Of a stretch of 62,953 nt of DNA, positions 6,219 to 61,488 are shown piece by piece; position 1 is the stretch's first letter, and each line of letters begins with the position of its first letter. The notes under the pieces were generated by a model that saw nothing but the letters and a program-made list of their open reading frames with translations, was not told the DNA's origin and did not search any database. The position numbers were made by a program, and so were the translations under genes. The stretch is from an uncultured Candidatus Saccharibacteria bacterium (lineage in GTDB: Bacteria > Patescibacteriota > Saccharimonadia > Saccharimonadales > JACDBH01): assembly GCA_964490245.1 (NCBI GenBank), contig CAZBAF010000007.1, forward strand, positions 1 to 62,953. Reading direction: 5' to 3'.

Positions 6219-6809
6219 ATGGGACGTAATAATGAGACGAGCGCCCTTGTCGACGGGCTGCTCAAGGCACTTGCGGGCGGCATCATACTTAGTGCGGCCA
6301 TCACAGCACCCAATTCAATTCAGGTGCTCGACAAGCCTTTGCAGCATTTTTTAGAAAGGCTCGATAAGCGCGAGCGCGAAAGAGAGCTTAAGCGACTTGC
6401 TGCCTACATGCGCAAACGCGGCCTCATACGCGGCACCTACGAACACGGCCTGATCATAACGAAAGCTGGCCGGCAACGCGCCAAAAAGGATGCTGCGGAC
6501 AAACTTACAATCGCCCAGCCAAAGGAGTGGGATAAGAGCTGGCGTCTCGTGCTCTTTGACATCCCCGAAACCAAACGCGATGCCCGCGCTGCACTCACAA
6601 ACATGCTGCGATCACTGGGTTTCCAGCTGCTTCAGCAAAGCGTCTGGATACACCCCTTCCCCTGCCGCGAACAAGTCGAAACATTATGCGTTCGTTATGG
6701 CGTTGCGCAATGGGTAAGCTATATCGAAACTTCCCACATAGATCACGACCATATCCTACAAAAACGCTTTGCAGCAGTTTTCCGTGGGAATAACTTTGGC
6801 GGCCGCTAA
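6219..6809 (+). CDS. PaaX-like / Cas2-fold small regulator-like protein
   Basis: 196 aa. Core WRLVLFDIPETKRDARAALTNMLRSLGFQLLQQSVWIHP matches the ferredoxin-like motif shared by the PaaX family and Cas2 (YDI...R..v.k.L...G....Q.SVf). N-terminal hydrophobic segment. Confidence 0.5.
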   Translation: MGRNNETSALVDGLLKALAGGIILSAAITAPNSIQVLDKPLQHFLERLDKRERERELKRLAAYMRKRGLIRGTYEHGLIITKAGRQRAKKDAADKLTIAQPKEWDKSWRLVLFDIPETKRDARAALTNMLRSLGFQLLQQSVWIHPFPCREQVETLCVRYGVAQWVSYIETSHIDHDHILQKRFAAVFRGNNFGGR

Positions 6810-6818
6810 AGTTATTCC
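6787..6818. repeat. 32-nt near-perfect palindrome spanning the stop codon (ggaataactttg gcggccgc taaagttattcc)
   Basis: 11-bp arms 6787-6797 / 6808-6818 around a NotI-type palindrome. Its right half is copy 2 of the 20-nt direct repeat. Followed by tattt, so terminator-like. Confidence 0.8.
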
Positions 6819-6844
6819 TATTTGGGACTGGTATACTTGGGGCT

Positions 6845-6852
6845 GATATACT
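6845..6852 (+). promoter_or_regulatory. extended -10-like box TGATATACT, 8 nt before the ATG
   Basis: cTGaTATACT at 6844-6852; start codon at 6861. Duplicate of the box at 6204-6211. Confidence 0.45.
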
Positions 6853-6860
6853 AATTACTA

Positions 6861-8081
6861 ATGAAGTCACTTCTTATACTTGGGCGGCAGCCGGCACTGG
6901 GCCTGGCCGAACTGGAAAGCCTGTTTGGGGCCGCTAACCTCCGCCCGGTCGGATCAGAAGCCGCGCTGCTGGCCATTGATGCCGCCGAGGTACCCTTTGC
7001 CCGCCTGGGCGGCAGCGTAAAGCTGGCAAAAGTCCTGACCACCCTGGACACCACCAACTGGAAAGACATTGCCGCCTACCTGGCCAAAACCATTCCCGAT
7101 CACCTGCAACATGTGCCCGAGGGCAAACTGCGTCTGGGCCTAAGCACCTACGGCCTGCGCGTCCGTCCGCAAGAGATAAACGCCACCGGCCTAAGTCTCA
7201 AGAAAATCATCAAAGCCGAGGGCAGAAGCGTACGCGTCATCCCCAATAAAACCACTGCCCTCAACAGCGCCCAGGTTCTGCATAACCAACTGACCGGCCC
7301 GACCGGCTGGGAGCTGGTGCTGGTACGCCACGGCAACAAAACTATTCTTGCACAAACAGTTGCCGAACAGGATATAGAAGCCTACGCCAAACGAGACCAA
7401 AACCGTCCGGCACGCGATGCAAAAGTCGGCATGCTGCCGCCCAAGCTCGCCCAAGTGCTGGTCAATTTGGCCGTAGGCAAAATTGAGGAGAGAGAAGTTA
7501 GGAGTGAGGAGAGAGCTATTCTGGACCCCTTTTGCGGTACCGGAGTTTTGTTACAGGAAGCGATGCTTATAGGCTATCAGGCATACGGAACCGATATCGA
7601 ACCCCGTATGATTGATTACTCACGAAAGAACCTTGCATGGCTCAGTGATCAGTACCCCAAACGCCGCCACCCAAGTCCAGAACTTGAAGTCGGCGACGCC
7701 ACCACCCACACCTGGTCCTCTCTATTTACCAGCTACCACCTACCAACTACTGTATCTGTTGCCTGCGAGACTTATCTTGGAAAGCCCCTCACCTCCCTGC
7801 CGCCGCGCCATGTGCTTGATCCGATCATGGCCGAATGCGATGATATCCACGAAAAATTCCTGCGCAATATCGGTGATCAGATAAAACCCGGCACCCGCCT
7901 CTGCCTGGCTGTACCGGCTTGGCGGACAAAAAGTGGCTTCTTACACCTTAAAACGCTTGCAAAACTGGATGAATTAGGCTATACTCGTCAGAAGTTTGTT
8001 CACGCACGTAATGAGGAGCTGGTCTATCATCGCCCCGACCAGACCGTCGCCCGTGAACTGGTAGTTTTAGAAAAGCAATAA
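6861..8081 (+). CDS. putative SAM-dependent RNA (N2-guanine/N6-adenine type) methyltransferase with N-terminal RNA-binding-like domain
   Basis: 406 aa. Motif I ILDPFCGTGVLLQEA and GTDIEPRMI resemble the Trm11/RlmL/UPF0020 group. The motif IV region is not a clean (D/N)PPY. Confidence 0.6.
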   Translation: MKSLLILGRQPALGLAELESLFGAANLRPVGSEAALLAIDAAEVPFARLGGSVKLAKVLTTLDTTNWKDIAAYLAKTIPDHLQHVPEGKLRLGLSTYGLRVRPQEINATGLSLKKIIKAEGRSVRVIPNKTTALNSAQVLHNQLTGPTGWELVLVRHGNKTILAQTVAEQDIEAYAKRDQNRPARDAKVGMLPPKLAQVLVNLAVGKIEEREVRSEERAILDPFCGTGVLLQEAMLIGYQAYGTDIEPRMIDYSRKNLAWLSDQYPKRRHPSPELEVGDATTHTWSSLFTSYHLPTTVSVACETYLGKPLTSLPPRHVLDPIMAECDDIHEKFLRNIGDQIKPGTRLCLAVPAWRTKSGFLHLKTLAKLDELGYTRQKFVHARNEELVYHRPDQTVARELVVLEKQ

Positions 8082-8084
8082 CGT

Positions 8085-8219
8085 AAAATAACCACTGTTA
8101 AGCGGTTATTTTGAGACAAGGGTAATTTGCCCTTAGGTGAGGCTTCCATTTCGGAAACGTATTTTACGTACGATGGAGAAATGTCCTCGACTAAGGGGAA
8201 ATTACCACTCTCAAAATAA
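8085..8219 (+). promoter_or_regulatory. structured leader/element upstream of rpmA (about 115-nt imperfect hairpin plus a competing 5' hairpin)
   Basis: Helices paired by hand: 8106-8116/8209-8219 (11 bp), 8121-8128/8199-8206 (8 bp), 8130-8136/8191-8197 (7 bp), 8138-8142/8185-8189, 8144-8149/8173-8178, 8158-8161/8169-8172. The alternative hairpin 8085-8093/8104-8112 shares bases with the first helix. Confidence 0.4.
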
Positions 8220-8242
8220 GTGCGCGCATAAAGGAACTATAG

Positions 8243-8515
8243 ATGGCACATGTCAAAGCTGGCGGTACCGCCAAAAACATCCACAACAACCCCGGTCAAC
8301 GCCTGGGCGTTAAAGTATTTGGTGGCGAAAAGGTCACAACCGGCCAGGTTATCGTCCGCCAGGTTGGCCTGACCAAGCGCGCCGGCGTCGGCACCAAGCT
8401 CAGCCGCAACTTCACCATCCATGCTGACCGCGACGGCACCGTCGTTTACAACAAGCGCAAGGTCAAGACTTTCACCGGCCGCACCGTCTGGCGCACCGAA
8501 GTCACTGTTCAGTAA
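8243..8515 (+). CDS. rpmA: 50S ribosomal protein L27
   Basis: 90 aa. MAHVKAGGTAKN ... RLGVKVFGGEKV ... IVRQ is the L27 signature. Confidence 0.95.
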   Translation: MAHVKAGGTAKNIHNNPGQRLGVKVFGGEKVTTGQVIVRQVGLTKRAGVGTKLSRNFTIHADRDGTVVYNKRKVKTFTGRTVWRTEVTVQ

Positions 8516-8530
8516 TTCCCTACGACTTAC

Positions 8531-41986: not shown

Positions 41987-43708
41987 CTACTGGAATATAG
42001 AATCTTTGTCTTGGTTCCAGGTGTTCTGCCAGGCGCTTGTGCTGACCACCGACGAGCTGGGGATGGTGAAGTTCCGCCTGCCCTTGTAGGTATTGTTGTT
42101 AAACAGATTGTTCTGGTTCCTGCTGATGTTGTCCTGAATGGACGCGACAGTAAAGGCGCGGCCGCCCATGCCGTAGCCTGACCAAATGGCAGCTCTGGCG
42201 CAGTTGGTAGCGCTTTGCGAACACCAGCTGCTTCCGGCGCTTGTTATTTCGAAGATATTATCCACCACCCTGACGTTCCGCGTTCGCCAACGGCAAAGGT
42301 GCGCGTTGCTGACGACATTGGCGCTGGAACATTTGGAGATATTAGCATTGCGCTCAGAGTCGTTTTTGCCCTGAATAAGCGGCGGGCACCAGCTCGTATC
42401 GTTGCTTGTACAGTACCTGCCGGCGTCCTCCCAGAGGCTGATGTGGTTCCAGTTATCGACAACATAGTTGTTTGTCACCAGTAGCTCAGCCGGGAATGTA
42501 CCGCCAAGATAATTCTTTACCGCTTCGTCGCCGCCGGATTCGGATATATAGATGCCGGTGTTGTTATTGCCGCCTTTGTCCTGGACATAATTGCCGGTAA
42601 TGTAGTTGTCGCGGATGATACCGCTGTAGCTGATTTCGTAGAATATACCCCGCTTCCGGTTGTCTTTGCTGACATTGGCCTCTATTAATATGTCGATATT
42701 GTTATTGTCTATCCAGATACCGTTACCGTTGTTGCTGTGAACATTATTGTTGCGGATAGTGACGTTCTTGGCATTCCAGACCTTTAGCCCGCCGGAGCAG
42801 CCGGTGCAAACACCCAGTGTTTCAATCGCGTTACTGCGGTTGTTGTACCTGATCTCATTGCCCTCTACGAGCACGTTGACCCGCTGCTCATAGTTGCCGC
42901 CCCTGGAGGGCACCGAAAAGCCCAGCTGCTCATTGTATTCTATGCAGTTATTCAGCAGCTTGGAGTCATCAACCAGCCAGATGCCGGAGCCGCCATTATG
43001 CGAAATTGTGTTATTGGATACCGTCCAGCCCGGTGACTGACCCCAGTTGATTGCCGTCTGGTTGACCATAGAGGTTGTTTTGCCGTCTGACTGGCCGAAA
43101 TTCTTGATAGTCAGGTGCTTAATCGTCACATTGCTGTAATGGGCTGCGCCCTTGAAGGCCATGCTCATTGTCCGGCTGCCGCTGGTGTAGTTAGTCGTAA
43201 ACTGGCCGTCCAGGACCGCCCCGGGCGCACCAATATACTGATTGCCTGTCTTAGGATCAATCGGCCCGTTCGGCAGAGTATGCGTGCCTGCTGTCAGATA
43301 AAAAGTCGTGCCCGCCGGCCTGGATGAGGTTAGAGCCCTCAGATCAGTACCGGGGTTAACCACGACCGCACCGGCTGGCGGACTGGTCGGCCCATTCAGT
43401 ACAGAGGCATTGCCGCACACCTTAAAGTCATCCTGGCCCGGCCAAGCCGACTCGCTTATATTGCCGAACTGCACATAGCTGCCGCCCGACGCCTGCGTAT
43501 CACTGCCGGTGGTAACACCGCTTAAAATACCGCTCTCGGGCTCAAAGCTCAGCACCCCAGTGGCCGCCCGCGTGGCAACAAGCAGCGCCGTGGCTGCAAC
43601 CGCAAACAGCAGAACTGCGGGCAACAACGGGACCCTCCGCCCGTGCGAAGGTTTAAACTTCTTGGCTCTCCGCAATTTTCGCAAATACTTATTCATGCTT
43701 TCATGCAC
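41987..43708 (-). CDS. membrane-anchored right-handed parallel beta-helix protein (pectate-lyase/tailspike-like)
   Basis: 573 aa. N-terminal anchor VPLLPAVLLFAVAATALLVA. Multiple PbH1-type repeats (NNTISHNGGSGIWL, IRNNNVHSNNGNGIWID, IRDNYITGN, VTNNYVVDN). Confidence 0.7.
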   Translation of the reverse strand: MHESMNKYLRKLRRAKKFKPSHGRRVPLLPAVLLFAVAATALLVATRAATGVLSFEPESGILSGVTTGSDTQASGGSYVQFGNISESAWPGQDDFKVCGNASVLNGPTSPPAGAVVVNPGTDLRALTSSRPAGTTFYLTAGTHTLPNGPIDPKTGNQYIGAPGAVLDGQFTTNYTSGSRTMSMAFKGAAHYSNVTIKHLTIKNFGQSDGKTTSMVNQTAINWGQSPGWTVSNNTISHNGGSGIWLVDDSKLLNNCIEYNEQLGFSVPSRGGNYEQRVNVLVEGNEIRYNNRSNAIETLGVCTGCSGGLKVWNAKNVTIRNNNVHSNNGNGIWIDNNNIDILIEANVSKDNRKRGIFYEISYSGIIRDNYITGNYVQDKGGNNNTGIYISESGGDEAVKNYLGGTFPAELLVTNNYVVDNWNHISLWEDAGRYCTSNDTSWCPPLIQGKNDSERNANISKCSSANVVSNAHLCRWRTRNVRVVDNIFEITSAGSSWCSQSATNCARAAIWSGYGMGGRAFTVASIQDNISRNQNNLFNNNTYKGRRNFTIPSSSVVSTSAWQNTWNQDKDSIFQ

Positions 43709-51291: not shown

Positions 51292-52167
51292 TTAACTTTT
51301 GACAGAGCTCAAAAGATTGATCAGCTCATCAAGGTCGTCATCGGTCTTAAATCGGATAACCAACCGCCCGCCCTTTGCCATGTGATTAACGCTGACCGGC
51401 CGGCCCAGCAGTTTGGTAAGCTTTTTTGTCTCGGGCGTTGTGGAGGCCGTTCTCTTTTTGGCACCTTCACTGGTTTTGGCGCCCTGCTTAGCCGCCACTA
51501 CAAACTGCTCGGCCTGGCGCACCGACCAGCCGTTCTTCAGTATCAGCGACAAAAGCTCTTCCTGGCGCTTAGGGTACTCTTTTAGAGCCAGAATCGACCG
51601 CGCATGTCCCTCGGTTATCTGTCCGGCATGCAGCGCCTCGCGGGCACCGGACGGCAGCTGCAGCAGGCGCACCAGATTAACAATTGTCGACGGCGCTTTA
51701 TTAAGACGTTTGGCAATCTGCTCAAAACTGATTCCAAACAGCTCGTGCAGTCTGTTTATAGATGCCGCCTGTTCCAGCGGAGCTAGATCAACCCGCTGGA
51801 TATTCTCAACTAATGCCATCTCAAGATGTTCCAGCTCTTTCACGGTTCGCACCATAGCCGGAATACGCTCCTTGTTGGCGAGCTTGCTGGCACGCCAGCG
51901 CCTCTCGCCGGCAATAATGACAAATTTGTCATCCTTTCGGACCACAAGGATTGGCTGCAGCACACCGAACTGTTTTATTGAGTCCGCCATTTCCTGCAGC
52001 GCCTGTTCGTCGAATGTTCGCCTGGGCTGTTCGGGATTGGGTATAATTTCAGAAATGAGCAAATTTTGTACTCGGTCTTTGTTCTCGTTTAGTACAGCGA
52101 TCTCCAAGCCTTGCGGCATGAGAGCATCAAAGCCCTTGCCGAGCCCTCGTGATTGTTTAGCCGACAC
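51292..52167 (-). CDS. parB: chromosome partitioning protein ParB
   Basis: GLGKGFDAL, PNPEQPRR, GERRWRAS, HTH region. Confidence 0.9.
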   Translation of the reverse strand: MSAKQSRGLGKGFDALMPQGLEIAVLNENKDRVQNLLISEIIPNPEQPRRTFDEQALQEMADSIKQFGVLQPILVVRKDDKFVIIAGERRWRASKLANKERIPAMVRTVKELEHLEMALVENIQRVDLAPLEQAASINRLHELFGISFEQIAKRLNKAPSTIVNLVRLLQLPSGAREALHAGQITEGHARSILALKEYPKRQEELLSLILKNGWSVRQAEQFVVAAKQGAKTSEGAKKRTASTTPETKKLTKLLGRPVSVNHMAKGGRLVIRFKTDDDLDELINLLSSVKS

Positions 52168-52912
52168 GGGTAATTACCTCCTTTGCCAAACTTTTATATG
52201 CCCTGGCCCCCTTTGACCACTTATCGTGTTCGCCAATCGGCCGGCCATAGCTGGGCGCCTCAGCCAGGCGGACATTACGCGGGATAATGGTTGCAAACAG
52301 CTTGTCACCGAAATGCTTCTGCAGCTCTGCCTTTACCTGCTCTGATAAACTGTTTCGGGAATCATACATTGTAAGAACGACACCAAGTATCGTAAGATCT
52401 GGGTTAATTGCCTCCTGCACCCGTTGCACGACACTGAGTAACTGACTTAACCCTTCGAGTGCATAGTACTCATTTTGTACGGGTATAAGAACAAAATCCG
52501 AAGCAGCCAGTGCATTAATGGTCAGCAGCCCGAGCGAGGGCGGACAATCAATCAGAATAAAATCATGCGTAAACTGGTCCAATACCCGCTTGAGCTGCAA
52601 CTCACGCTGCAGCGTGCCAACCAGCTGAACCTCTGCCCCGGCAAGATTGGCATTTGCAGGCAATACCTGCAAATTTTTAAACTCGGTATCAACCACAATA
52701 TTTGGAGCCACTTCAGCAGAAAAAAGCGCATCATACATGGTCTCGCCTAAAGCGTTTTTATCAATGCCCAGTCCGCTCGTCGCATTCCCCTGTGGATCAA
52801 GGTCAGCTATAAGAACGGTCTTACCCGCTTTACCAAGATAACTACCCAGATTAACGGCAGTAGTTGTCTTGCCGACTCCGCCCTTCTGATTCAAAACCGC
52901 AATTTTGGCCAA
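52157..52912 (-). CDS. parA: chromosome partitioning ATPase ParA/Soj
   Basis: Deviant Walker A NQKGGVGKTT. TTG start with GAGAGGG upstream. Confidence 0.9.
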   Translation of the reverse strand: MAKIAVLNQKGGVGKTTTAVNLGSYLGKAGKTVLIADLDPQGNATSGLGIDKNALGETMYDALFSAEVAPNIVVDTEFKNLQVLPANANLAGAEVQLVGTLQRELQLKRVLDQFTHDFILIDCPPSLGLLTINALAASDFVLIPVQNEYYALEGLSQLLSVVQRVQEAINPDLTILGVVLTMYDSRNSLSEQVKAELQKHFGDKLFATIIPRNVRLAEAPSYGRPIGEHDKWSKGARAYKSLAKEVITRVG

Positions 52913-52982: not shown

Positions 52983-54539
52983 CTACAACCCCGGCAGCTG
53001 GTTGATACGCGGCAGCACACCCAGCACATTACCCACCTGCAGGCCGGTTGCGCCCTTGCTCAGTGCATTGGCTGCCTGCGTATTGTTATTTATGATGTGA
53101 CCAACCACTCGTTTACCAGTGGCAAGCAGCACGTCCCAGTGAGCCTGATCGGCATCGTGGTTGAGACCCAATATATCATAGAGAGCCACTTTAGCCGGTG
53201 TACTGCCGGGATTATCCGTGTCATAGAAATACCCCCATTGCATATAGCCGCGCATAGCCGGTTCTGCCGCATGACTTGTACCGCCGCCGCCATAACTCTT
53301 AATAATGAACCGCTGTACGGCCTCGGCCCGCGGAAAACGGCTTTCTATCAGATCAAGCAGGGCTGCCATATGGTTGTAGGTCTTGTCTTCAACAATGATA
53401 ACGTGCGTACGGGCATAGTCAGAAGCCAAAAAATCATCGAACCGTTCAATGGGGCCGGAGTAGCCGTTGCCTGACTGCGTCAGCCCCTGTAACGTCGCCC
53501 ACGGCGTTGAGGCAATGGTATGGTTAACACCTGTCATGCGGGTTGTCGTGGGGTCATGATGCATTACCCACACACCGTCAGATGTACGCTGCAGCGACAC
53601 CTCCAGACACTTGGCACCGTGCCATACCGCGTTGGTGTAGGCCCTCATCGTAAACTCTAAAAAGTTGGCAGACCCGCCGCGATGCGCCCAGTAAAAAGGA
53701 TTCTCCTCCAGCATGTCCGCGATCGTAAAACGTTCGCCCTGCGGAAGTGCCAGAATATCCTCAACCGGCTGCAGATCGCTGCCGTTATACCACCATGCTG
53801 CCGCATTCTGAAGATCTGCTCCGTCATAAATCTTTATGGTTTTAGTCGAAGGAGCAGCCGGCTGCCCGCCCCTGAGCACAAAGGCACGCACGGCGCGCTG
53901 CGGTGCTGCCACGCTCAGGCTGGCGGTTTTGGCCGGAATCACTTCAATATCAACATCTTCTGTAAAAACTCCGACAACCGTCTTGGCGCCATTGGATGCT
54001 CCGCTGTAATCATAAAACTGCTGCGTCATTCCGTCCGGTCCGGATGCTAGCGTGACGTTGTCTGCCGGAGACGGAAAATTGGCCATCATACTAAACACCA
54101 AAAGGCCGTCTTCTGCGGTCGAACTAATGGGCGAGGTTGATATATCCGTCCCGCTGATGCCAGTTCCCTCCGGCCCGAACGAAACTACCACCGGATCATC
54201 AATATTAAGATTCTGCACACGAACCATGACGCCAAGCAGACGGTTACCGCTGCCCGGAGCGGTAAACTGGTACGTGGCTGCCGGACTGCCGGTAAGCGGC
54301 AGAATAAAAAACGACTGCAGACGATGGTCGAGGCTATCGGTATGGTCAGGGCCAATGCGTGTCCAGCCCGGTGGCGGCGTCCAGTCGGATGCTGTCTGCC
54401 CCTGGCCGGTAAGCACTGCCAGCAGCACCTCGCCCGCCTGGGCATCGGCCGGCACTGCGATTGTCACCGAACCGCCCGTGCCGTTGGCATTGACGCCAGT
54501 CGCAGAGGTAGGCACTCCAACAAACGCAGGACGCGGCAC
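52983..54539 (-). CDS. phage minor-tail-like beta-rich domain fused to a glycerophosphodiester phosphodiesterase (GDPD) domain
   Basis: 518 aa. N-terminal about 270 aa with AGEVLLAVLTGQGQTASDWTPPPGWTRI. C-terminal GDPD signature WAHRGGSANFLEFT ... CLEVSLQRTSDGVWVMHHD. Confidence 0.6.
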   Translation of the reverse strand: MPRPAFVGVPTSATGVNANGTGGSVTIAVPADAQAGEVLLAVLTGQGQTASDWTPPPGWTRIGPDHTDSLDHRLQSFFILPLTGSPAATYQFTAPGSGNRLLGVMVRVQNLNIDDPVVVSFGPEGTGISGTDISTSPISSTAEDGLLVFSMMANFPSPADNVTLASGPDGMTQQFYDYSGASNGAKTVVGVFTEDVDIEVIPAKTASLSVAAPQRAVRAFVLRGGQPAAPSTKTIKIYDGADLQNAAAWWYNGSDLQPVEDILALPQGERFTIADMLEENPFYWAHRGGSANFLEFTMRAYTNAVWHGAKCLEVSLQRTSDGVWVMHHDPTTTRMTGVNHTIASTPWATLQGLTQSGNGYSGPIERFDDFLASDYARTHVIIVEDKTYNHMAALLDLIESRFPRAEAVQRFIIKSYGGGGTSHAAEPAMRGYMQWGYFYDTDNPGSTPAKVALYDILGLNHDADQAHWDVLLATGKRVVGHIINNNTQAANALSKGATGLQVGNVLGVLPRINQLPGL

Positions 54540-54545
54540 CTAAAC

Positions 54546-55103
54546 TTATCCTCCGACAACTATAATGATGGAGTTTGCCGGCGTGCCGGGCGGCACCGGA
54601 TCGCCATCGTTTATTTTAATAATCCCGATCGCCGCCTGACCTTCAGTAACCGTAGCCGCCCCTAAAGATGCAGCGCCCACCGCTCCTGCGTCAGTGATGT
54701 CCGCTGCGGTATGCGCGTGCGCCACATCTGCCTTGTCAGCAAGCCCGGGCACTGTCGGGCTGTCAGCTGTTCCGCCCAGATCGCCCGTTAGCCTCACTAC
54801 ACCCTTGACGCCTGACGTTGCATCGGGAGCCCCCGCTGCCGCCACCCCGTCAACATAGGCCTTGTTGGCGGCCTGTTGATTGCTGGTGGGTGTCGGCACC
54901 AGAGGCGAAGCAGTAAAAGTCTTTGCCCCGTTCACGGTTTGCGCACCGGACAACTTAACCACGTTGCTGTCCTGAGCGGCGCCCGCCTGGGCCATTGCGG
55001 CAGGCTTAATACTGCCGTCCGCATTATGCGACTGCGTCAGAAAATCGTTCAGGATGGCGCCCCATGATCCGTCGTCACCACCTGGTACAGGTAATCGTGC
55101 CAT
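54546..55103 (-). CDS. phage tail-fibre-like protein
   Basis: 185 aa. LPVPGGDDGSWGAILNDFL, TVNGAKTFTASPLVPTPTSNQQAANKAYVD, KGVVRLTGDLGGTADSPTVPGL, HAHTAADITD. From memory this is the motif set of actinophage tail-fibre/minor tail proteins. TATACT plus GGAGGGAG upstream. Confidence 0.6.
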   Translation of the reverse strand: MARLPVPGGDDGSWGAILNDFLTQSHNADGSIKPAAMAQAGAAQDSNVVKLSGAQTVNGAKTFTASPLVPTPTSNQQAANKAYVDGVAAAGAPDATSGVKGVVRLTGDLGGTADSPTVPGLADKADVAHAHTAADITDAGAVGAASLGAATVTEGQAAIGIIKINDGDPVPPGTPANSIIIVVGG

Positions 55104-55144: not shown

Positions 55145-56155
55145 TTAAGCCGATTGCCCCTGCAAAACCGGATTGTAAAAATCCGATATAACCCCCGGCT
55201 GCGTCCTCTGTGCCGGTACCTCACGATGCGAAGGCCCGCGCTGGGCCGCTGCCGGCCGGGCGGACGACAGCGCGCCTGACGGTCTGGCGCGCACCGGGGC
55301 AACAAAGTCGCTTATCACCCGCGCCTGCTGTGCCATCGCCGGCCGGTGCTGCGCCTTGACGGGCGGAGCTTGTTTAACCTGAGCAGTCGGAACCGGCTGC
55401 CGTACAACCGGATCAGTAGCCGGCGCAACAACTACTGAGGGCCGCTTCAAACGCGACCCGACTGCAACCACCAGCACGGATAACAAATAAAGCACTACCA
55501 GCGGCATGGCCATCAAAAACTGGTTTAGCGGATCAGGCGTCGGCGTAATAATAGCCGCAGCCACAAAGCTGCCCAGAATAACGTACCGTGTTGCCCGCAG
55601 CATTTTTGAAGGCTTAAGAGGGGTAATACGATTTATAAACAAAACAACTATCGGCAGCTGAAAAATCAGTGCAAAACCAAGAATATAGGTAAGAACAAAA
55701 TTAAAGTATTCATTAGCAGTAATCAGTGATTGTATATTACTGTCCTGGCTAAACATTACGAGAAAGTGCAAGGCTGCCGGCAGGCTCAAAAAGTACGCAA
55801 ACAACACGCCGGCAACCGCCAGCAGAAACGAAACCAGAACATAGAGCACGAGCGCCCTTTTGGTGGCATTGCGTATAAGCGGTCCAAAAAAAGCAAAGAC
55901 CTGATAGATAGCAACCGGTAACGCGATCAAAAAGCCAAAAACCGTACAGATCTTTATGATAAAACTGAACGCACCGGTCGGCGCGGTATAGTAGAGCGTA
56001 TCATGAAGCGGCCTCTGCATAACCGCAATAAGGGTGTCATGGATAAAATAGCCCGCAGCAGCGCCCAGCACAACAAAAAGAACAGTCCACATCAACCGTT
56101 TTCGCAGCTCCTGAAGATGTTCTGCGAGTGTAGCCGATGTAGACTGTGCTTGCAT
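55145..56155 (-). CDS. tatC: twin-arginine translocase subunit TatC with about 100-aa C-terminal extension
   Basis: HLQELRKRLMW start motif, 6 TM. The tail carries the repeated motif VISDF(V/Y)xP. Confidence 0.85.
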   Translation of the reverse strand: MQAQSTSATLAEHLQELRKRLMWTVLFVVLGAAAGYFIHDTLIAVMQRPLHDTLYYTAPTGAFSFIIKICTVFGFLIALPVAIYQVFAFFGPLIRNATKRALVLYVLVSFLLAVAGVLFAYFLSLPAALHFLVMFSQDSNIQSLITANEYFNFVLTYILGFALIFQLPIVVLFINRITPLKPSKMLRATRYVILGSFVAAAIITPTPDPLNQFLMAMPLVVLYLLSVLVVAVGSRLKRPSVVVAPATDPVVRQPVPTAQVKQAPPVKAQHRPAMAQQARVISDFVAPVRARPSGALSSARPAAAQRGPSHREVPAQRTQPGVISDFYNPVLQGQSA

Positions 56156-56178: not shown

Positions 56179-56370
56179 TTACTTATCTTCTTTGGATCCT
56201 GAAGAATCAGACTTTTTATCATCTGATTTTTTACCAGAATCAAAACCTTTTTGCAGCTCACCGGCAGATTCACCCAGACTCCGGGCAAGCTTAGGCAATT
56301 TAGTGCTGCCGAACAAAAGCAACAAGATAACTAATATAATAATCAGTTCCGGCAATCCCAGTCCGAACAT
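56179..56370 (-). CDS. tatA: twin-arginine translocase subunit TatA
   Basis: 63 aa. MFGLGLPELIIILVILLLLFGSTKLPKLARSLG. AAGGAGAGGG SD. Confidence 0.85.
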   Translation of the reverse strand: MFGLGLPELIIILVILLLLFGSTKLPKLARSLGESAGELQKGFDSGKKSDDKKSDSSGSKEDK

Positions 56371-56433: not shown

Positions 56434-56613
56434 CTATCGGCCGTATGTACTTGCACCGTACCCCATAGGACGTACCGACGAGGTACTGCGCCCCTGAAGA
56501 GACTTTAAAACAGCACTAACGCCTAGCACCACCAGCACCAGCGAACCCGCATACTGCAGAAATTCTTTTCGTGTCATTTTTTGTTGCAAGAGTGCAGCCA
56601 GCTGTAGTTTCAT
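56434..56613 (-). CDS. 59-aa mini-protein with Tat-signal-like motif (below the ORF-track cutoff)
   Basis: My own translation: MKLQLAALLQQKMTRKEFLQYAGSLVLVVLGVSAVLKSLQGRSTSSVRPMGYGASTYGR*. AAAGGAAAAATC precedes the ATG. TRKEFLQ followed by a hydrophobic helix resembles (S/T)RRxFLK. Confidence 0.4.
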   Translation of the reverse strand: MKLQLAALLQQKMTRKEFLQYAGSLVLVVLGVSAVLKSLQGRSTSSVRPMGYGASTYGR

Positions 56614-56721
56614 GATTTTTCCTTTGTTTGTATTGGTTTGTTGTTATACCAAAATTATATATACTAGCGTAAGCTTTTTCAATTGTATACTTGCGGCTTT
56701 TTCTTTAAACTAGAGACAAGA

Positions 56722-57027
56722 ATGTCCAAGCTAAAAGAAATTTCTCTACACGTATCTATTATTGCACTGTTTTTTACTTTTCTCTTTGCCGTCCCTGGCC
56801 TGGTCCGGACAACACACGCACAGACTTATAATTGCGGGGCCTACGGGGTCAGTGCTTACGGCAGTTCAGGGGCTGTAAATGCCGACTGCGAGCCGCTCGA
56901 AAATCTTGAAAACACTGGCAGCTCGCCTGTTCCCGGCATGGCGATTGGCGGCCTGATTGTACTGCTGGGAGTTATGGGAATAGTCTTCACCCGACATCGT
57001 CGGTCCAAACCGGCAAGCAGCAGATAA
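56722..57027 (+). CDS. small secreted protein with sortase-type C-terminal sorting-signal architecture
   Basis: Start at MSKLKEISL. Signal peptide ending THAQ, about 33-aa mature part with 2 Cys, then LENTG + hydrophobic helix + RHRRSK tail. TGTATACT box 30 nt upstream. Confidence 0.5.
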   Translation: MSKLKEISLHVSIIALFFTFLFAVPGLVRTTHAQTYNCGAYGVSAYGSSGAVNADCEPLENLENTGSSPVPGMAIGGLIVLLGVMGIVFTRHRRSKPASSR

Positions 57028-57081: not shown

Positions 57082-60000
57082 TTACTGAGGAGCTGCGTCA
57101 AGGCCCCTGTCGACACCGCCGGTAAAGGTACGGCCTCCCCGCAGCCTGCTGCCGGGATTAGACGTGTAGTATAAATCAAAATCAGTTATCTGCGTCTGAG
57201 CAATGGACCTGTCAGGAAAGACACTGCTCCGCTCATCGTTAAAGAAGTATCTGACCCGCAGACAACGCGCCAGTGTTGCGCTGCCGGTTGTAATATCTAT
57301 CATATTTTCTGCGCCCACGTGCAAATCATTAACGGTCTGTCCGGTAATATACGGCGTATCGTTGCACGCTACGCTGTATTCAGAGCTAAAAGGCATTGAA
57401 GTGAAGGTCTGTCTGGTGCCGCGCGTAATCAGTTTATTCGGCCGAACCCCGACCTCAAAGTCATATACCTTCGAAAAACCGCCCGCTCGCGGAATGGATT
57501 GCAGCGTTGCATACCGCGTGGAGCTCAGAATTGTCGGACCGCCGCCGCTTTGTCCGCCAGTCATGTATACGACACCGCCCCAAACCGCAACCGCAAGATT
57601 GCCATGAGTCGACGAGCCCGAATATGACCCCGCCCCCTGCCAGACACCCAGCCGGCCGCCAGACAAAATCGCCGCATACTGCACCTGGTTATAAAAGCCG
57701 CTGCTATTCTCGCCGCCAACCGCATAAATATACCCATTGAGCGCAAAAGCGGCCGAGGTTGAGAAGCTGCTGACAGCATCGTTGAGCTGAGTGGTAGTGT
57801 TCCATGTACCCACCGATCCATCGCTACTAATGTTGAGCGGCGCAAACAGAACAGTTCGAAGACGCCCGGCAGCAGAATTTCCGCCCATCACATAAATATA
57901 GCCCTTATATATAGTAGAAAACATACTGTGACGGCCTTCAGGCAACGAGGTTGTGCTGGTCCAGCCCCCGATATCGCCTGTACTGGTATTGATCGACGCG
58001 AAGCTTACATCAGTCTCAGCTGATGCGCCGCCTATTACATACACCTTGTTACCAGCGTCTACCTCTGTAATTATTCCGGGGTTCGCCCCTGTTGTGGGCA
58101 GAGCCGTATCGTCAATCGTCCAGCCGCCCGTCAAATCACCATTAGATTGAGGTGAGATACGCTGGATATCAGTAAGCACCGTGCCGCTGGCATCGATACC
58201 GCCGGCAATGAATATATAACCGTACCTATAGAAGGCATAGTGGCTATGACGGGCGGTTGTATAGGCACTGGATGCAGTCGACCAGGAGCCGATAGAGCCT
58301 TTCGCATCAAGTGATGCGTATAATATATCGCTTGCAACACTGCTGCATGCCCCGTTGGTGCAGCCCCCCATTGCATAGATGTAGCCGTTCACCACAATTG
58401 ATGCATGGTTTTTGCGGGCAGTAGAAAGCGTAGAGCTGGTGCTCCAGCTGCCCGGCCCTCCTTGGCCGGCGTTATTAACCGCTTGGAATTGAACCTGGTT
58501 CGTATTAGGCGAAACACCTGACCGACCGCCAATAACATACAGCATGCCGTTGAAGACCGCTGCAGAGTTTTCGTACCGTTCTACATTCAGGTTTGTCGTA
58601 TATTCCCAGCTGCCGAGCGTGCCGTTATTGTTGATAGGTGCAAACTGGACGTCACTGAGCGGGGTCGACCCCGCCGTATCGGTACCGCCCAGCACATATA
58701 TGTAACCGTTATACAGAAGCGAGGTAGCATTTGTACGGCCGCCCGTGAAAGAGGTCGTATTATTCCAGCTGCCGAGCGTGCCGTCGGAATTTATATCAGC
58801 ATACTGAACGGTCGTCTGATAGAGGCTGTAGTTTCCGCTGCCAACACCTGGACAGCCGTTAAAACAACCCCCTACCAAATATATCCTGCCATTATAAACA
58901 TGACTGGCACCCCTTAAGTTACTGCGATGCGTCGGCAACGTACCTGTGCTAATCCAGGAACCAAGCGTGCCATCGCTATTTATAGATGCGCGGTAGGTCA
59001 CCATACTGGGTGTGGTTGGCACCCCGCCAATTACATACAAATAGTCATTGAAAGCCTGTAGAGCGTGCGCGCGGCGCACACCGGGAAGAGAAGTTGTAGG
59101 CGTCCAGCTGCCGATGCTGCCATCGCTGTTTACAGCGGCGTACTCTACGCCGTCCAGTTCGCCCCCACTATCCTGTCCGCCGCTCACATACATATACCCG
59201 TTGTAGATAACCACATCAAAGTCCTGCCGGGCATTGTTCATCACATTGGCTGATGTTGTCCACGAACCAAGTGTGCCGGAAGTATTAATCGGAGCATAAG
59301 CCACACTGTTAAGAATACTGCCGTTATTGCCGCCAACCACATACAGGTAGCCGTTGTAGGCAATGCTCTGGTGCATTCGGCGCACGGTAGGCAGGTTTGT
59401 TGCCGACGACCACGAGCCATCATGAAGAGAGCCGGCCGCATTGATTGTTGTGTGCTCGATACGACTGGTCATGTTACAGTCACCGGATATACAGCCGCCA
59501 AGCATGTACATATTACCGTTCCAGGTAACCACAGCCGAAGAGTGTGCGGCAGTGTTGATACTGCTGGTCGTCCTCCAGTCGCCAAGCGAGCCGTCAGCAT
59601 AAATAGGTGCGTACTCAGTCGAGCTTAAAAACGAGCTGCAACCGGATGAGTAGTTGGTGCAGCCGCCAACCACATACAAATAGCCGTTCCAGATGGTGGC
59701 ATGAGGATAGTGCCGAGCGGTATTCATTGAACTGGCAGAAGACCAGCTCCCCACCGATCCGTCGCTATTAACACGTGCATAATACACCGCATTCGAAGAG
59801 GTACCGGCGCCGCCGCGCCCGCCTATCACGTATATCCAGCCATTGTAAGCAAGAACAGAGGCATTCATGCGGTTGCCGGGCAGGTTGTTGCCGGAGCACC
59901 AGGAAGCACCACAACCAGAGTCGCTGGCAATGGAGCCGTCAGCATTCAGACGAGCGTATTCAAATCTGTTTAACGCACTTCCGGAGGTTAAGCCGCCAGC

Positions 60001-61488
60001 TATATACAGATACCCATTGTACGCCGTCATGTCCATCTCGCGCCGCATTGTCAAAAGGCTGGCTGTTGCTGTCCAGTCTCCAAGCGTACCGTCCGCATTG
60101 ATCTTGGCATACTGCACATCACTGAGATAGTTAGTGCCCTGATAGGCGCCGCCTGCCACGTAGATATAGCCGCCATAAACCGCAACAGAATGCTGTCGGC
60201 GCCCCGACCCGATCAGACTCGAGGTGGCCGACCAGCTGCCAAGGGTACCGTCGGTATTAATAGATGCATAATGTACTGAATTAATCCAACCGCCATCAGT
60301 ACTATAGCCGGCAACCAGATAAATATAGCCGTTATAGACTGCTGCCGCATGCGTAATTCTTTGATCGGGCAGGTTCATGGTGCTTGTCCATGATTTGAGC
60401 GTGCCGCCGGTTACGGCACCCCGACGGATCAGGTTGCCCGAGTAGTCAATCTCTACACCCGGTTCCAGATTAACGTTAGAAAAGTCAGCAGCGCTGGTGA
60501 CCTGGAACGTCGGGTCAATTGAGATTGGATACGGCAGGTCCTTTAACGACCTGCTGGCTATGGTCAGGTCGTACACATTATAGGTACTCATGGCCTCTGC
60601 GCGCTGTCGCACCTCCTCTGGGATATCTTTATTATTATCAGCCTGAGCGCGCCGCTCAATCCGTTCGCCCAGCCGGAATTCTGACCGGTCACTATACTCG
60701 CGCCCCGCCGCATCCTTAATAATAGGAGCGGGAATGGTCATGATCAGATTGTTTTTGACACCGTTCTGGCGAGCTTTTTCAACCCGAGCACGATCGTCAT
60801 CGGAACCAAAAGACATATTGCCAAACAGCGAACTGTCAGATGTGTAGATACCAATCCCGCCGTTTTCCAGACGCGCCTCTGTTCCGGCCGGCAGCACCAG
60901 CTCGAACGTATAATCCAACTTGTCGGCAATAAAGTCGGGGATGATGATGTCTTCTTTGAGGCCATTGTATTTGAGGCTATAGACAAGCTGGCTTCTGCCA
61001 AAAGGATAGACGATCTGGTTGCCTGCTGCGCGCCGGCCTTCCTTGACCGGAAACTTAGGCACCAGCCGCACCGCTACCTGCGTGTTTTTATCGGTCACGC
61101 TAATACCCTGCTTTGGGTCGGTACTAAAACTGGCCGAGTACGCGTCGGCTACTCTGCCCGTATGTTTGCTGGTTTCTGATGCAGGCTGTTCTGGCACGGC
61201 AAACTCATAGGCGGTCTGCTGGTCGTTGAGCTTAAGATACTCAACCGCATCATCGCGCACTTCGCCAACCAGACTAAGGGCATTAGGCGACAGCTCATAG
61301 CTTTGATGCTGCATAAACGGGCCAATGCTCTGAATCAAAACCGACAGGCCCATAATGGACGCCCCGGCCAGACCATAGCCTGTCCTGCGCCAGGCTGCAC
61401 GCCGCTGCCTCAAACCCCCGGCCGCAGCCTCTTGTGGCCTGTGACCGTGTTTTTTGTGTTTATTTGAGAATCCGAGCCATGGGTTCAT
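57082..61488 (-). CDS. giant membrane-anchored surface protein with 18 Kelch-type blades
   Basis: 1468 aa. N-terminal TM GLAGASIMGLSVLIQSI. 18 repeats of about 50 aa with the pattern Y(A/V)xIN(A/S)DG(T/S)LGSW ... R ... NGY(I/L)YV(I/V)GG, counted by eye. Distinct N-terminal (about 340 aa) and C-terminal (about 170 aa) domains. Confidence 0.8.
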   Translation of the reverse strand: MNPWLGFSNKHKKHGHRPQEAAAGGLRQRRAAWRRTGYGLAGASIMGLSVLIQSIGPFMQHQSYELSPNALSLVGEVRDDAVEYLKLNDQQTAYEFAVPEQPASETSKHTGRVADAYSASFSTDPKQGISVTDKNTQVAVRLVPKFPVKEGRRAAGNQIVYPFGRSQLVYSLKYNGLKEDIIIPDFIADKLDYTFELVLPAGTEARLENGGIGIYTSDSSLFGNMSFGSDDDRARVEKARQNGVKNNLIMTIPAPIIKDAAGREYSDRSEFRLGERIERRAQADNNKDIPEEVRQRAEAMSTYNVYDLTIASRSLKDLPYPISIDPTFQVTSAADFSNVNLEPGVEIDYSGNLIRRGAVTGGTLKSWTSTMNLPDQRITHAAAVYNGYIYLVAGYSTDGGWINSVHYASINTDGTLGSWSATSSLIGSGRRQHSVAVYGGYIYVAGGAYQGTNYLSDVQYAKINADGTLGDWTATASLLTMRREMDMTAYNGYLYIAGGLTSGSALNRFEYARLNADGSIASDSGCGASWCSGNNLPGNRMNASVLAYNGWIYVIGGRGGAGTSSNAVYYARVNSDGSVGSWSSASSMNTARHYPHATIWNGYLYVVGGCTNYSSGCSSFLSSTEYAPIYADGSLGDWRTTSSINTAAHSSAVVTWNGNMYMLGGCISGDCNMTSRIEHTTINAAGSLHDGSWSSATNLPTVRRMHQSIAYNGYLYVVGGNNGSILNSVAYAPINTSGTLGSWTTSANVMNNARQDFDVVIYNGYMYVSGGQDSGGELDGVEYAAVNSDGSIGSWTPTTSLPGVRRAHALQAFNDYLYVIGGVPTTPSMVTYRASINSDGTLGSWISTGTLPTHRSNLRGASHVYNGRIYLVGGCFNGCPGVGSGNYSLYQTTVQYADINSDGTLGSWNNTTSFTGGRTNATSLLYNGYIYVLGGTDTAGSTPLSDVQFAPINNNGTLGSWEYTTNLNVERYENSAAVFNGMLYVIGGRSGVSPNTNQVQFQAVNNAGQGGPGSWSTSSTLSTARKNHASIVVNGYIYAMGGCTNGACSSVASDILYASLDAKGSIGSWSTASSAYTTARHSHYAFYRYGYIFIAGGIDASGTVLTDIQRISPQSNGDLTGGWTIDDTALPTTGANPGIITEVDAGNKVYVIGGASAETDVSFASINTSTGDIGGWTSTTSLPEGRHSMFSTIYKGYIYVMGGNSAAGRLRTVLFAPLNISSDGSVGTWNTTTQLNDAVSSFSTSAAFALNGYIYAVGGENSSGFYNQVQYAAILSGGRLGVWQGAGSYSGSSTHGNLAVAVWGGVVYMTGGQSGGGPTILSSTRYATLQSIPRAGGFSKVYDFEVGVRPNKLITRGTRQTFTSMPFSSEYSVACNDTPYITGQTVNDLHVGAENMIDITTGSATLARCLRVRYFFNDERSSVFPDRSIAQTQITDFDLYYTSNPGSRLRGGRTFTGGVDRGLDAAPQ

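Follow-up and report, generated by a model that had tools for sequence, protein, structure and literature searches.

The stretch of DNA analysed here (the window) comprises the 62,953 nucleotides (nt) of contig CAZBAF010000007.1 from an uncultured Candidatus Saccharibacteria bacterium (assembly GCA_964490245.1), and the subject of this work is a pair of minus-strand genes within it that encode a fibre-like protein of 185 amino acids (aa) (P0049; 54546..55103, ATG start) and a two-domain phosphodiesterase of 518 aa (P0001; 52983..54539, GTG start). Both open reading frames (ORFs) are intact and the spacer between them is 6 nt. A first-pass annotation, made from the letters alone, had described the two genes as a minus-strand pair with 6-nt spacing between tatAC and parAB; its coordinates are exact, and all peptide motifs that it quoted for the two products are found in the translations. 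The closest homologues of the 518-aa and 185-aa proteins give E values of 2e-241 and 8e-75, respectively, and the two genes are thus far beyond chance. An assembly chimera is ruled out by contigs of two independent bioreactor runs, which cross both junctions of the pair at even depth. The locus is present in bioreactor, compost, sludge, and manure metagenomes.

Directly upstream of the fibre gene and co-oriented with it lies tatC (55145..56155, minus strand; Pfam TatC, 8e-56), preceded by tatA (56179..56370, minus; Pfam TatA_B_E, 3e-13) and by a gene for a small protein of 59 aa (56434..56613, minus; NCBIfam NF038009 at E 4e-14, below the model cut-off). The tatC-to-fibre spacer of 41 nt holds TTGCCC-18 nt-TATACT, followed by GGAGGGAG-TT-ATG. 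The TATACT box (55119-55114, minus) and the GGAGGGAG ribosome-binding site (55113-55106, minus), both read from the sequence directly before the fibre ATG, had been put forward as signals of the pair's own. Both are present, but the TATACT box is poorly placed as a promoter for the pair: it abuts the ribosome-binding site, so that a transcript from it would begin inside that site. TTGCCC-18-TATACT scores 9/12 in a promoter consensus scan, and the count of promoter-like sites in the pair region is not above the shuffled expectation (the promoter/terminator scan as a whole was not above chance). The best promoter-like site of the region, TTGAAA-17-TATAAT (56654..56682, minus), scores 11/12 in the same scan, as a pattern match only, and lies upstream of all five genes, from the small gene through tatA, tatC, and the fibre gene to the GDPD gene; the terminator scan found no terminator-like site between tatC and the fibre gene. 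With a better promoter-like site upstream and no terminator in between, co-transcription is the simpler reading, and the fibre/GDPD pair looks co-transcribed with the tat genes. The ribosome-binding site of the 518-aa gene, GGAGGA (54549..54554, minus), lies inside the last fibre codons, 9 nt before the GTG at 54539, a placement consistent with translational coupling of the fibre and enzyme genes.

The GDPD domain that had been claimed for the 518-aa product is real, as judged by Pfam, by a clade profile searched against the PDB, and by its fold. The protein scores 61.5 bits against the Pfam GDPD profile (PF03009; cut-off 23.6), PHROG 17803 ('phosphodiesterase') matches residues 251-508 at 3.9e-56, and the clade profile matches 29 PDB GDPD sequences (best 1.8e-17). 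An AlphaFold model of the protein (mean predicted local distance difference test score, pLDDT, 87) consists of an all-beta part, residues 1-250, and a TIM barrel, residues 280-510, with pLDDT >90 across the barrel. In Foldseek searches the barrel (residues ~280-510; 53010..53702, minus; carrying H286, R287, E313, S315, H328, D329, E384, and K386) matches the petal domain of Staphylococcus phage 812's central spike at 6e-13, the C-terminal domain of phage K gp155, and Bacillus subtilis GlpQ 5t91 (target-normalised template modelling (TM) score 0.77, root-mean-square deviation 2.9 A, 251 columns). A structure search of a viral library returned GDPD proteins of Microbacterium and Clavibacter phages at 1e-29 to 1e-35. 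The N-terminal all-beta domain (residues 1-250; 53790..54539, minus) was also modelled alone (predicted TM score 0.83) and had no significant Foldseek match in the PDB (best E 2.8e-3, TM 0.23 or lower). Its earlier label of minor-tail-like would draw only on weak PHROG matches and on unassigned structure matches in the viral library. The domain is probably novel, with docking or carbohydrate binding as its predicted role.

The active site was compared in alignments of 20-21 relatives, in which H286, R287, D321, D329, K386, and K414 do not vary; one of the alignments has E313 and H328 invariant too, and the other nearly so. H286-R287 and H328-D329 align to the HR and HD of S. aureus GDPD 2oog, and the E384-D385-K386 motif is retained in the 518-aa protein. 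By these alignments the barrel retains the catalytic His/Arg/His set. S315 aligns, in a hidden Markov model alignment, to the metal-binding Asp that is the D of IEID in 2oog, and the canonical E-x-D is not present. The suspicion that an Asp in LEVSL had given way to Ser was right as to the residue at the metal site, but the Ser is a trait of the clade and not decay of this copy: at least 90% of the 20-21 sequences carry Ser at position 315, and its retention across the phage and actinobacterial clade rules out active-site decay. Enzyme activity and substrate are predicted from the fold and the relatives only.

The 185-aa protein matches minor tail and tail fibre families of PHROG (phrog_8780, 1.9e-9; phrog_16641, 7e-7; phrog_26758, 2e-6). 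The Pfam families DUF5907, BppL_N, and PTR stay below threshold for this protein (the short BppL_N match reaches 21.0 bits against a threshold of 25.8), yet they are recorded for many of its homologues. A protein search yielded 234 homologues, and the named ones are almost all metagenome-assembled genomes of Saccharimonadales or Patescibacteria; a profile of the fibre family matched 12,221 cluster-50 representatives. About 95 of the best 150 profile matches start at residue 1 with the same N-terminal anchor module (N-module; residues 1-35, MARLPVPGGDDGSWGAILNDFL...DGSIK; 54999..55103, minus). In the alignment of 26 relatives that defines it, M1, R3, L4, P5, G8, D10, W14, G15, L18, N19, L22, G30, and K33 are invariant, and the pattern is M-A-R-L-P-x-P-G-x-D-x-G-x-W-G-x-x-L-N-x-x-L...D-G-x-x-K. 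The module begins 94 ORFs of 111-1439 aa in the loci that were fetched, and a protein database search with the 41-aa N-module alone gave a single match. Behind the module, the same alignment shows a shaft of repeat motifs and highly variable C-termini. In the window protein the shaft (residues ~47-125; 54729..54965, minus) includes, from the Pfam matches, a BppL_N-type neck, VVKLSGAQTVNGAKTFT, and a DUF5907-type repeat, PDATSGVKGVVRLTGDLGGTADSPTVPGL, and the family profile matches the receptor-binding protein motif VVHKTGDETIAGKKTFTG of lactococcal phage TP901-1 at E 0.015. The fibre presumably trimerises.

The shaft repeats are present in 132 confirmed relatives on viral contigs, while the N-module begins proteins in only five uncultured IMG/VR viral contigs, where these are tailspike-like and 454-589 aa long. 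On one of the five (L153) the N-module protein directly follows the tape measure and is preceded by scaffold, major head, and major tail genes; the L153 capsid is 26-28% identical to capsids of diverse phages. The motif LPVPGGDDGSWGAILNDFL had been taken as a hallmark of actinobacteriophage fibres, and this does not hold for cultured actinophages: a tblastn search of the fibre against 50,697 phage records found the N-module absent and gave a single short shaft match. Going by the homologues recovered, LPVPGGDDGSWGAILNDFL marks a family in which most of the named members belong to Saccharimonadales.

The fibre ends in a C-terminal adaptor peptide (residues ~159-185, ...IGIIKINDGDPVPPGTPANSIIIVVGG; 54549..54629, minus). 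Over its last 75 residues, the fibre shares 41% identity (E 3e-7) with the C-terminus of a 164-aa protein of a Rhodococcus prophage, and the gene for the 164-aa protein directly precedes the GDPD gene of the prophage. The adaptor motif is about 25 residues long and consists of a hydrophobic strand, P-x-G-T-P, and a second hydrophobic strand. Apart from this motif, the genes that immediately precede GDPD-family genes are unrelated, range from 42 to 288 aa, and are in some cases collagen-like. The adaptor motif forms the end of the upstream gene at ten such loci, both in phages or prophages (L005, L177, L178, L179, L180, Hendrix, and OneinaGillian) and in Saccharibacteria contexts (window/L001, L014, and L016); the upstream gene of L178, at only 42 aa, is nearly all adaptor. 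Looser forms stand before the remaining GDPD-family genes, and the proteins of L076 (288 aa) and L081 (526 aa) end in just a similar hydrophobic strand. Hendrix gp61 has no BLAST similarity to the 185-aa protein, and its shared C-terminal motif was recognised by eye and with a loose pattern. The strict adaptor pattern occurs in 13 of 16,243 ORFs, each time (13/13) at the C-terminus of the gene that precedes the partner gene. We infer that the adaptor peptide mounts the enzyme on its carrier. The window fibre would then be a chimera, with a Saccharimonadales-type anchor and shaft joined to an actinophage adaptor. Fibres ending in the strict GDPD-type adaptor were also seen at L025 (6001-8961; PIPGGTPTGTVILRR) and L056 (6001-7510; PVPAGTPAGTVILRT), where the partner genes (642 and 249 aa, respectively) match neither the GDPD family nor its N-domain. 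The adaptor peptide may therefore serve tips other than GDPD too.

A protein search with the 518-aa enzyme found 48 homologues. Protein P0002, on a contig of 2.3 kb, is 70% identical, and the orthologue in L001, a locus from an unrelated run, is of equal length and also 70% identical. The other relatives with readable context are phage-borne, and outside Saccharibacteria the closest relatives (34-43% identity) are encoded within the structural modules of phages and prophages of Actinobacteria. One of them, from a Rhodococcus erythropolis prophage, shares 42% identity over the full length; its gene is located between the major tail protein and head-tail adaptor genes, and these are followed by genes for a tail assembly chaperone, a 1560-aa tape measure, and Dit. 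Further relatives, at 34-40% identity, come from phage-like or prophage contigs. The contig of P0004 (40% identity) carries SU10_adaptor and Collar proteins, and the contigs of P0005 and P0007 (36%, BLAST) carry lysin and Rad52, or tail tube protein, tape measure, holin, and integrase. In the comparison with phages that the first-pass annotation had proposed, tblastn with the enzyme matched 68 of the 50,697 phage records, mostly from Microbacterium phages (53), followed by Clavibacter (5), Streptomyces (4), Listeria (2), Enterococcus (2), Actinomyces (1), and one unassigned record. Hendrix gp62 and OneinaGillian gp29 of Microbacterium phages show 25% identity over the full length and occupy an equivalent place in their structural modules. 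In a rough neighbour-joining tree the window and L001 enzymes group with P0004 and the Rhodococcus prophage protein, apart from the other GDPD partners in Saccharibacteria contexts, which are 27-29% identical to the window enzyme. Such a grouping implies that genes have repeatedly been exchanged with the actinophage pool. TM7x, a Saccharibacterium, can be infected by an actinobacterial host's prophage that bears a baseplate GDPD (PMC13578794), which offers a plausible route for gene transfer into Saccharibacteria. The claimed relatedness of both proteins to phages thus holds at the level of profile, structure, and gene context.

The relative L001 also shows how long the pair has resided at its site. 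In L001, as in the window, the pair is followed by parA, parB, S26, LytR, an unknown gene, and HtrA, while the side upstream of the pair is not syntenic with the window; of the synteny that was to be checked, the pair-parAB order is therefore kept and the upstream side is not. Amino-acid identity between the window and L001 is 70-72% for the pair and 60-80% for the neighbours, the nonsynonymous divergence (dN) is 0.22-0.26 for the pair and 0.15-0.38 for the neighbours, and the synonymous divergence (dS) is saturated for both (>1.7 or not computable). GC content at third codon positions (GC3) is 0.59 in the pair and 0.49-0.66 in the neighbours; the overall GC content of actinophage loci is 0.62-0.70. 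The neighbour-like dN, the saturated dS, and the neighbour-like GC3 indicate that the pair has long been resident, has ameliorated in composition, and is under purifying selection, and the divergence between the window and L001 rules out recent horizontal acquisition. Taken from these sequence comparisons, a phage origin of both genes together with stable, selected residence in a core chromosomal locus is well supported.

No other phage genes had been seen in the 63 kb, and this is borne out for the large ORFs: a hallmark-domain scan of 17 of the 18 other window ORFs of at least 350 aa found no terminase, portal, capsid, tape-measure, or integrase domains and no lysis genes. The scanned proteins are housekeeping proteins, a beta-helix protein, or proteins without a Pfam match (406, 447, and 448 aa). 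No tRNA or Rfam element was found in the window, and no attachment-site-like or invertible repeats were found around the pair, where direct repeats are only short matches at chance level. On these scans, no prophage is present in the window. Downstream of the pair and co-oriented with it are parA and parB (51292..52912, minus; Pfam), and the genes nearby encode, by Pfam, TatA, TatC, ParA, ParB, signal peptidase S26, an LCP (LytR_cpsA_psr) protein, and HtrA. Genes farther away encode SecA, RF1, RF2, PrmC, CTP synthase, three class II aminoacyl-tRNA synthetases, RseP, an S41 protease, FtsX with two CHAP proteins, and XseA.

The pair belongs to a much wider family. When the fibre family was run against one genome per species in GTDB, 462 confirmed relatives were found; the best 80 of these are nearly all from Saccharibacteria, often with 2-4 copies per genome. 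No phage modules were found within +/-10 kb of six independent family loci, where housekeeping genes surround the cassettes, and neighbour clustering over 79 loci gave mainly housekeeping genes and no recurrent phage-like neighbour. The siting among core genes that had been noticed for the window thus extends to the family, which holds conserved core-gene sites in many Saccharimonadales. The commonest neighbour of fibre-family genes is tatC (14/80 loci, window included), and a second fixed site, between truB-like and pnp-like genes, accounts for 7-8 loci. Almost every fibre gene has a tightly coupled partner gene directly after it, and the C-terminus of the fibre co-varies with the type of partner. 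Among 52 distinct partners, Pfam recognised GDPD (5), ConA-like Laminin_G_3 (3), PhoD (2), a metallo-beta-lactamase fold (1), and an alpha/beta-hydrolase (1), and many partners match tail-fibre or virion PHROGs of phages. The N-domain of the enzyme recurs as a stand-alone partner of 268-275 aa, or as 2-3 tandem copies in other partners. In the tatC-adjacent cassettes, fibre length (185-1439 aa), C-terminus, and partner gene vary by species, and the tat locus looks like the fixed site of a hypervariable cassette. The window pair is one member of a large, modular, and apparently undescribed family of chromosomal fibre-plus-tip cassettes that is recurrently linked to the Tat locus; a literature search found no description of the cassette family, which is not proof that none exists.

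The small gene near tatA belongs to this picture as well. The start of its 59-aa product is Tat-signal-like (TRKEFL and then a hydrophobic stretch), the tail reads GYGASTYG, and the model that the product matches, NF038009, is named 'twin-arginine translocation system-associated protein'. The small Tat-associated proteins as a group are 57-76 aa long, match NF038009 below its cut-off, and share x-R-K/R-E-F-L, the hydrophobic stretch, and a conserved GYGxSxYG tail. Members occur in the window and at L021, L029, L047, L055, L058, L063, L066, L068, L074, L081, L083, and L091, and in 12-13 species-level genomes a homologue directly adjoins a fibre-family gene. The usual order in these genomes is tatA-tatC-small gene-fibre(-partner); in the window the small gene is located upstream of tatA. 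Two further loci of the family deserve a separate description. L014 carries two divergent cassettes side by side (6630-9854, minus, and 10001-13719, plus), one with a 183-aa fibre (Phage_tail_C) and an 889-aa partner and the other with a 258-aa fibre and a 980-aa GDPD partner that contains three tandem N-domain copies; type IV secretion pilin genes are nearby. At L013 (3193-4908, minus) a 571-aa serine recombinase (Resolvase) is encoded downstream of the cassette partner, at a distance of about 190 nt. In another assembly, locus L012 is otherwise identical but has no such gene called at the corresponding place, and the recombinase gene may be a mobile insertion next to the cassette.

Several other genes in the window were noted. 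Close to the tat locus, a 114-aa ORF (56683-57027, plus) has a signal-like hydrophobic N-terminus and a C-terminus, composed of LENTG, a hydrophobic segment, and RHRRSK, that resembles a sortase cell-wall sorting signal. A 1468-aa protein (57082-61488, minus) that adjoins the tat locus consists almost entirely of Kelch/beta-propeller repeats and may be a surface protein. Farther away, a 573-aa right-handed beta-helix protein (41987-43708, minus; Pfam Beta_helix 8e-23, NosD) is without the fibre N-module; this fold is frequent in polysaccharide-degrading enzymes and tailspikes. Two neighbouring CHAP-domain proteins (420 and 389 aa; 14152-17595, minus) stand beside an FtsX-like permease, a layout that recalls FtsEX-controlled cell-wall hydrolases.

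Among known systems the closest counterparts are the actinophage gene pairs of PHROG 17803, namely Hendrix gp61/gp62, OneinaGillian gp28/gp29, and the Rhodococcus 164-aa/508-aa pair. Like the window enzyme, theirs consist of a beta N-domain and a GDPD barrel (25-43% full-length identity) with the E-x-S variant of the metal site, and the gene order is the same, the upstream protein carrying the adaptor peptide at its C-terminal end. The differences are in the setting and in the upstream protein: the actinophage pairs lie between the major tail protein and the head-tail adaptor, whereas the window pair lies between tatC and parA without phage genes, and the Saccharimonadales-type N-module and shaft of the window protein are replaced in the actinophage counterparts by a phage-specific N-terminus. 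The spike of phage 812 (PDB 9EUL), phage K gp155, and the Lactobacillus phage Ld17 protein share with the window enzyme the TIM-barrel phosphodiesterase fold and two conserved histidines. Sequence identity to phage 812/K-type GDPD domains is only 12-19%. In both cases the enzyme would be mounted on a fibrous carrier, but the phage 812/K-type GDPD is fused to the spike or tail protein, whereas the window GDPD is a separate polypeptide and would be linked through the adaptor. The Ld17 GDPD is cited as a baseplate-associated enzyme in PMC13578794. The cleavage of wall teichoic acid by staphylococcal baseplate GDPDs, treated earlier as established, was overstated: for the GDPD 'petal' domain of phage 812 it is a proposal (PMC13433997).

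The neck of TP901-1 BppL, V-V-h-x-x-G-x-x-x-I-x-G-x-K-T-F, is nearly identical to the fibre family consensus, but the head domain and the baseplate context of BppL are absent from the window fibre. Tailocins, gene transfer agents, and contractile injection systems resemble the window pair in being phage structural genes kept by cells under selection. Unlike them, the window keeps just the part of a tail that binds receptors and carries the enzyme; genes for a tube, sheath, baseplate, or capsid did not turn up in it or close to any family locus. Among cellular enzymes, GlpQ and PhoD of B. subtilis, which are secreted teichoic-acid phosphodiesterases, are comparable in that GDPD and PhoD enzymes both serve as partners in the cassettes. 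The two Bacillus enzymes have export signals and work alone; the window enzyme differs from them by the missing signal, the extra N-domain, the fibre partner, and the Ser at the metal-binding Asp.

The Saccharibacterium from which the window derives probably lives on the surface of other bacteria. We favour, with confidence slightly better than even, the interpretation that the pair is a two-gene cassette of phage origin and a selected resident of the chromosome, in which the fibre carries an enzyme directed against wall polymers of an actinobacterial host. Virion modules of phages infecting Actinobacteria would have supplied the adaptor peptide and the enzyme together, as one unit that was grafted onto a Saccharibacterial fibre scaffold. 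The fibre would then carry the enzyme through the adaptor peptide, and the complex would bind and cut phosphodiester-linked, teichoic-acid-like polymers in the wall of the host, with easier attachment, access, or nutrient release as the outcome. Trimerisation, the fibre-enzyme complex, its export, its substrate, and the epibiotic role are all predicted steps, and an action of the pair on the host wall is plausible. A number of observations weigh against this interpretation. Neither the 185-aa nor the 518-aa protein has a Sec or twin-arginine (Tat) signal or a membrane segment; an RR/RK motif and a hydrophobic segment are absent from both, so that export by the pair's own Tat or Sec signals is ruled out, and the same lack of export signals and membrane segments applies to 51 of the 52 partner proteins of the family. 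On the enzyme side, only positions 1-74 of the 244 of the Pfam GDPD profile (the first third) align, and the family-wide Ser in place of the metal-binding Asp leaves catalysis and metal dependence as predictions. Gene position is what suggests that the actinophage homologues are incorporated into virions, and an actinobacterial host is putative for the organism of the window. Family members were not identified in cultivated oral Saccharibacteria, and none of the RNA runs contains the window locus, which was seen in DNA runs only.

The lack of export signals in the pair and in the family keeps one alternative alive and also motivates an extension of the favoured interpretation. The alternative, which we hold to be unlikely, is that a phage-like particle (a resident prophage, a tailocin, or something like a gene transfer agent) is encoded elsewhere in the genome and that the cassettes provide it with spare or alternative receptor-binding modules; the N-module would plug each fibre into the particle, which would be released by lysis. 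A whole family without export signals, like virion proteins, would fit such a particle, as would several paralogues per genome with one shared anchor and the tailspike-like proteins that begin with the N-module in five viral contigs, that of L153 following the tape measure in a siphovirus-type module. The gene transfer agent of Rhodobacter capsulatus has fibre and spike genes at loci off its main cluster. Against such a particle, the scanned large ORFs of the window are without phage structural domains, the six independent family loci have no phage structural genes within +/-10 kb, the clustering of 79 loci yielded no recurrent phage-like neighbour among mainly housekeeping genes, and the genomes are about 1 Mb. 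The extension, likewise unlikely in our estimate, is that swappable, phage-derived fibre-plus-tip cassettes are lineage-wide organelles of host recognition and wall opening, that their tips are exchanged with the phages of the actinobacterial hosts, and that the folded, signal-less fibres are exported by the adjacent Tat machinery, hitch-hiking on the small Tat-signal protein.

Instead of acting on a host, the pair might act on the Saccharibacterium's own envelope, in turnover or remodelling of teichoic-acid-like polymers or in scavenging of phosphate or glycerol phosphate, as B. subtilis GlpQ and PhoD do. We regard this as a rather poor prospect, although GlpQ is the best cellular structural match of the barrel (target-normalised TM 0.77), PhoD-like enzymes are among the alternative partners of the family, and an LCP-family (LytR_cpsA_psr) gene 2.5 kb away suggests phosphodiester attachment of wall polymers. 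The tat genes adjoin the pair, and in B. subtilis phoD adjoins tatAd-tatCd. On the other hand, one would not expect a housekeeping enzyme to require a phage-type fibre whose tips vary or to be exchanged repeatedly with actinophages, the pair has no signal peptide, unlike GlpQ and PhoD, and the nearest relatives of the enzyme are phage-borne and not cellular. That the two genes are what is left, inert, of a prophage in decay, or a selfish pair of phage genes that does nothing for the cell, is improbable: the clear phage origin, the lack of export signals, and the detection of the locus in DNA runs only would agree with it, but the ORFs are intact and of orthologue-like length despite saturated dS, dN equals that of the housekeeping neighbours, the pair has taken on the composition of the host genome, its chromosomal position is shared between species, and no integrase, attachment-site repeats, or other phage genes turned up in the scanned ORFs and the repeat scan. 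Finally, a phage-type enzyme and fibre could serve as a defence or decoy that strips or masks the cell's own phage receptors, in a manner like superinfection exclusion. Phages of the hosts can infect Saccharibacteria and carry GDPD baseplate enzymes (PMC13578794), and variable tips would suit an arms race; with no known defence genes nearby among the scanned proteins (the PADLOC library was not searched) and with export signals lacking here as well, we consider this role very improbable.

By what means ultrasmall epibiotic bacteria select their hosts and breach them is largely an open question. The envelope functions reported as needed for epibiotic growth are type IV pili, a type IV secretion system, and adhesins (PMC10633639, PMC11623550). 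If the host-directed interpretation of the fibre and enzyme pair is true, the cassettes would be a second, diversifying class of host-interaction determinant, borrowed from phages that attack the same hosts. The adaptor peptide would represent a simple rule for mounting a phosphodiesterase on different carriers in phages and in these cells, and the recurrent linkage to the Tat locus suggests, as a concrete hypothesis, how folded fibres that lack a signal could be exported. The interest of the finding exceeds that of a single orphan pair, as it concerns cassettes at the level of a family in Saccharimonadales; if the interpretation is correct, each tip, whether GDPD, PhoD, lectin-like, or another, would predict the wall polymer targeted by a given Saccharibacterium.

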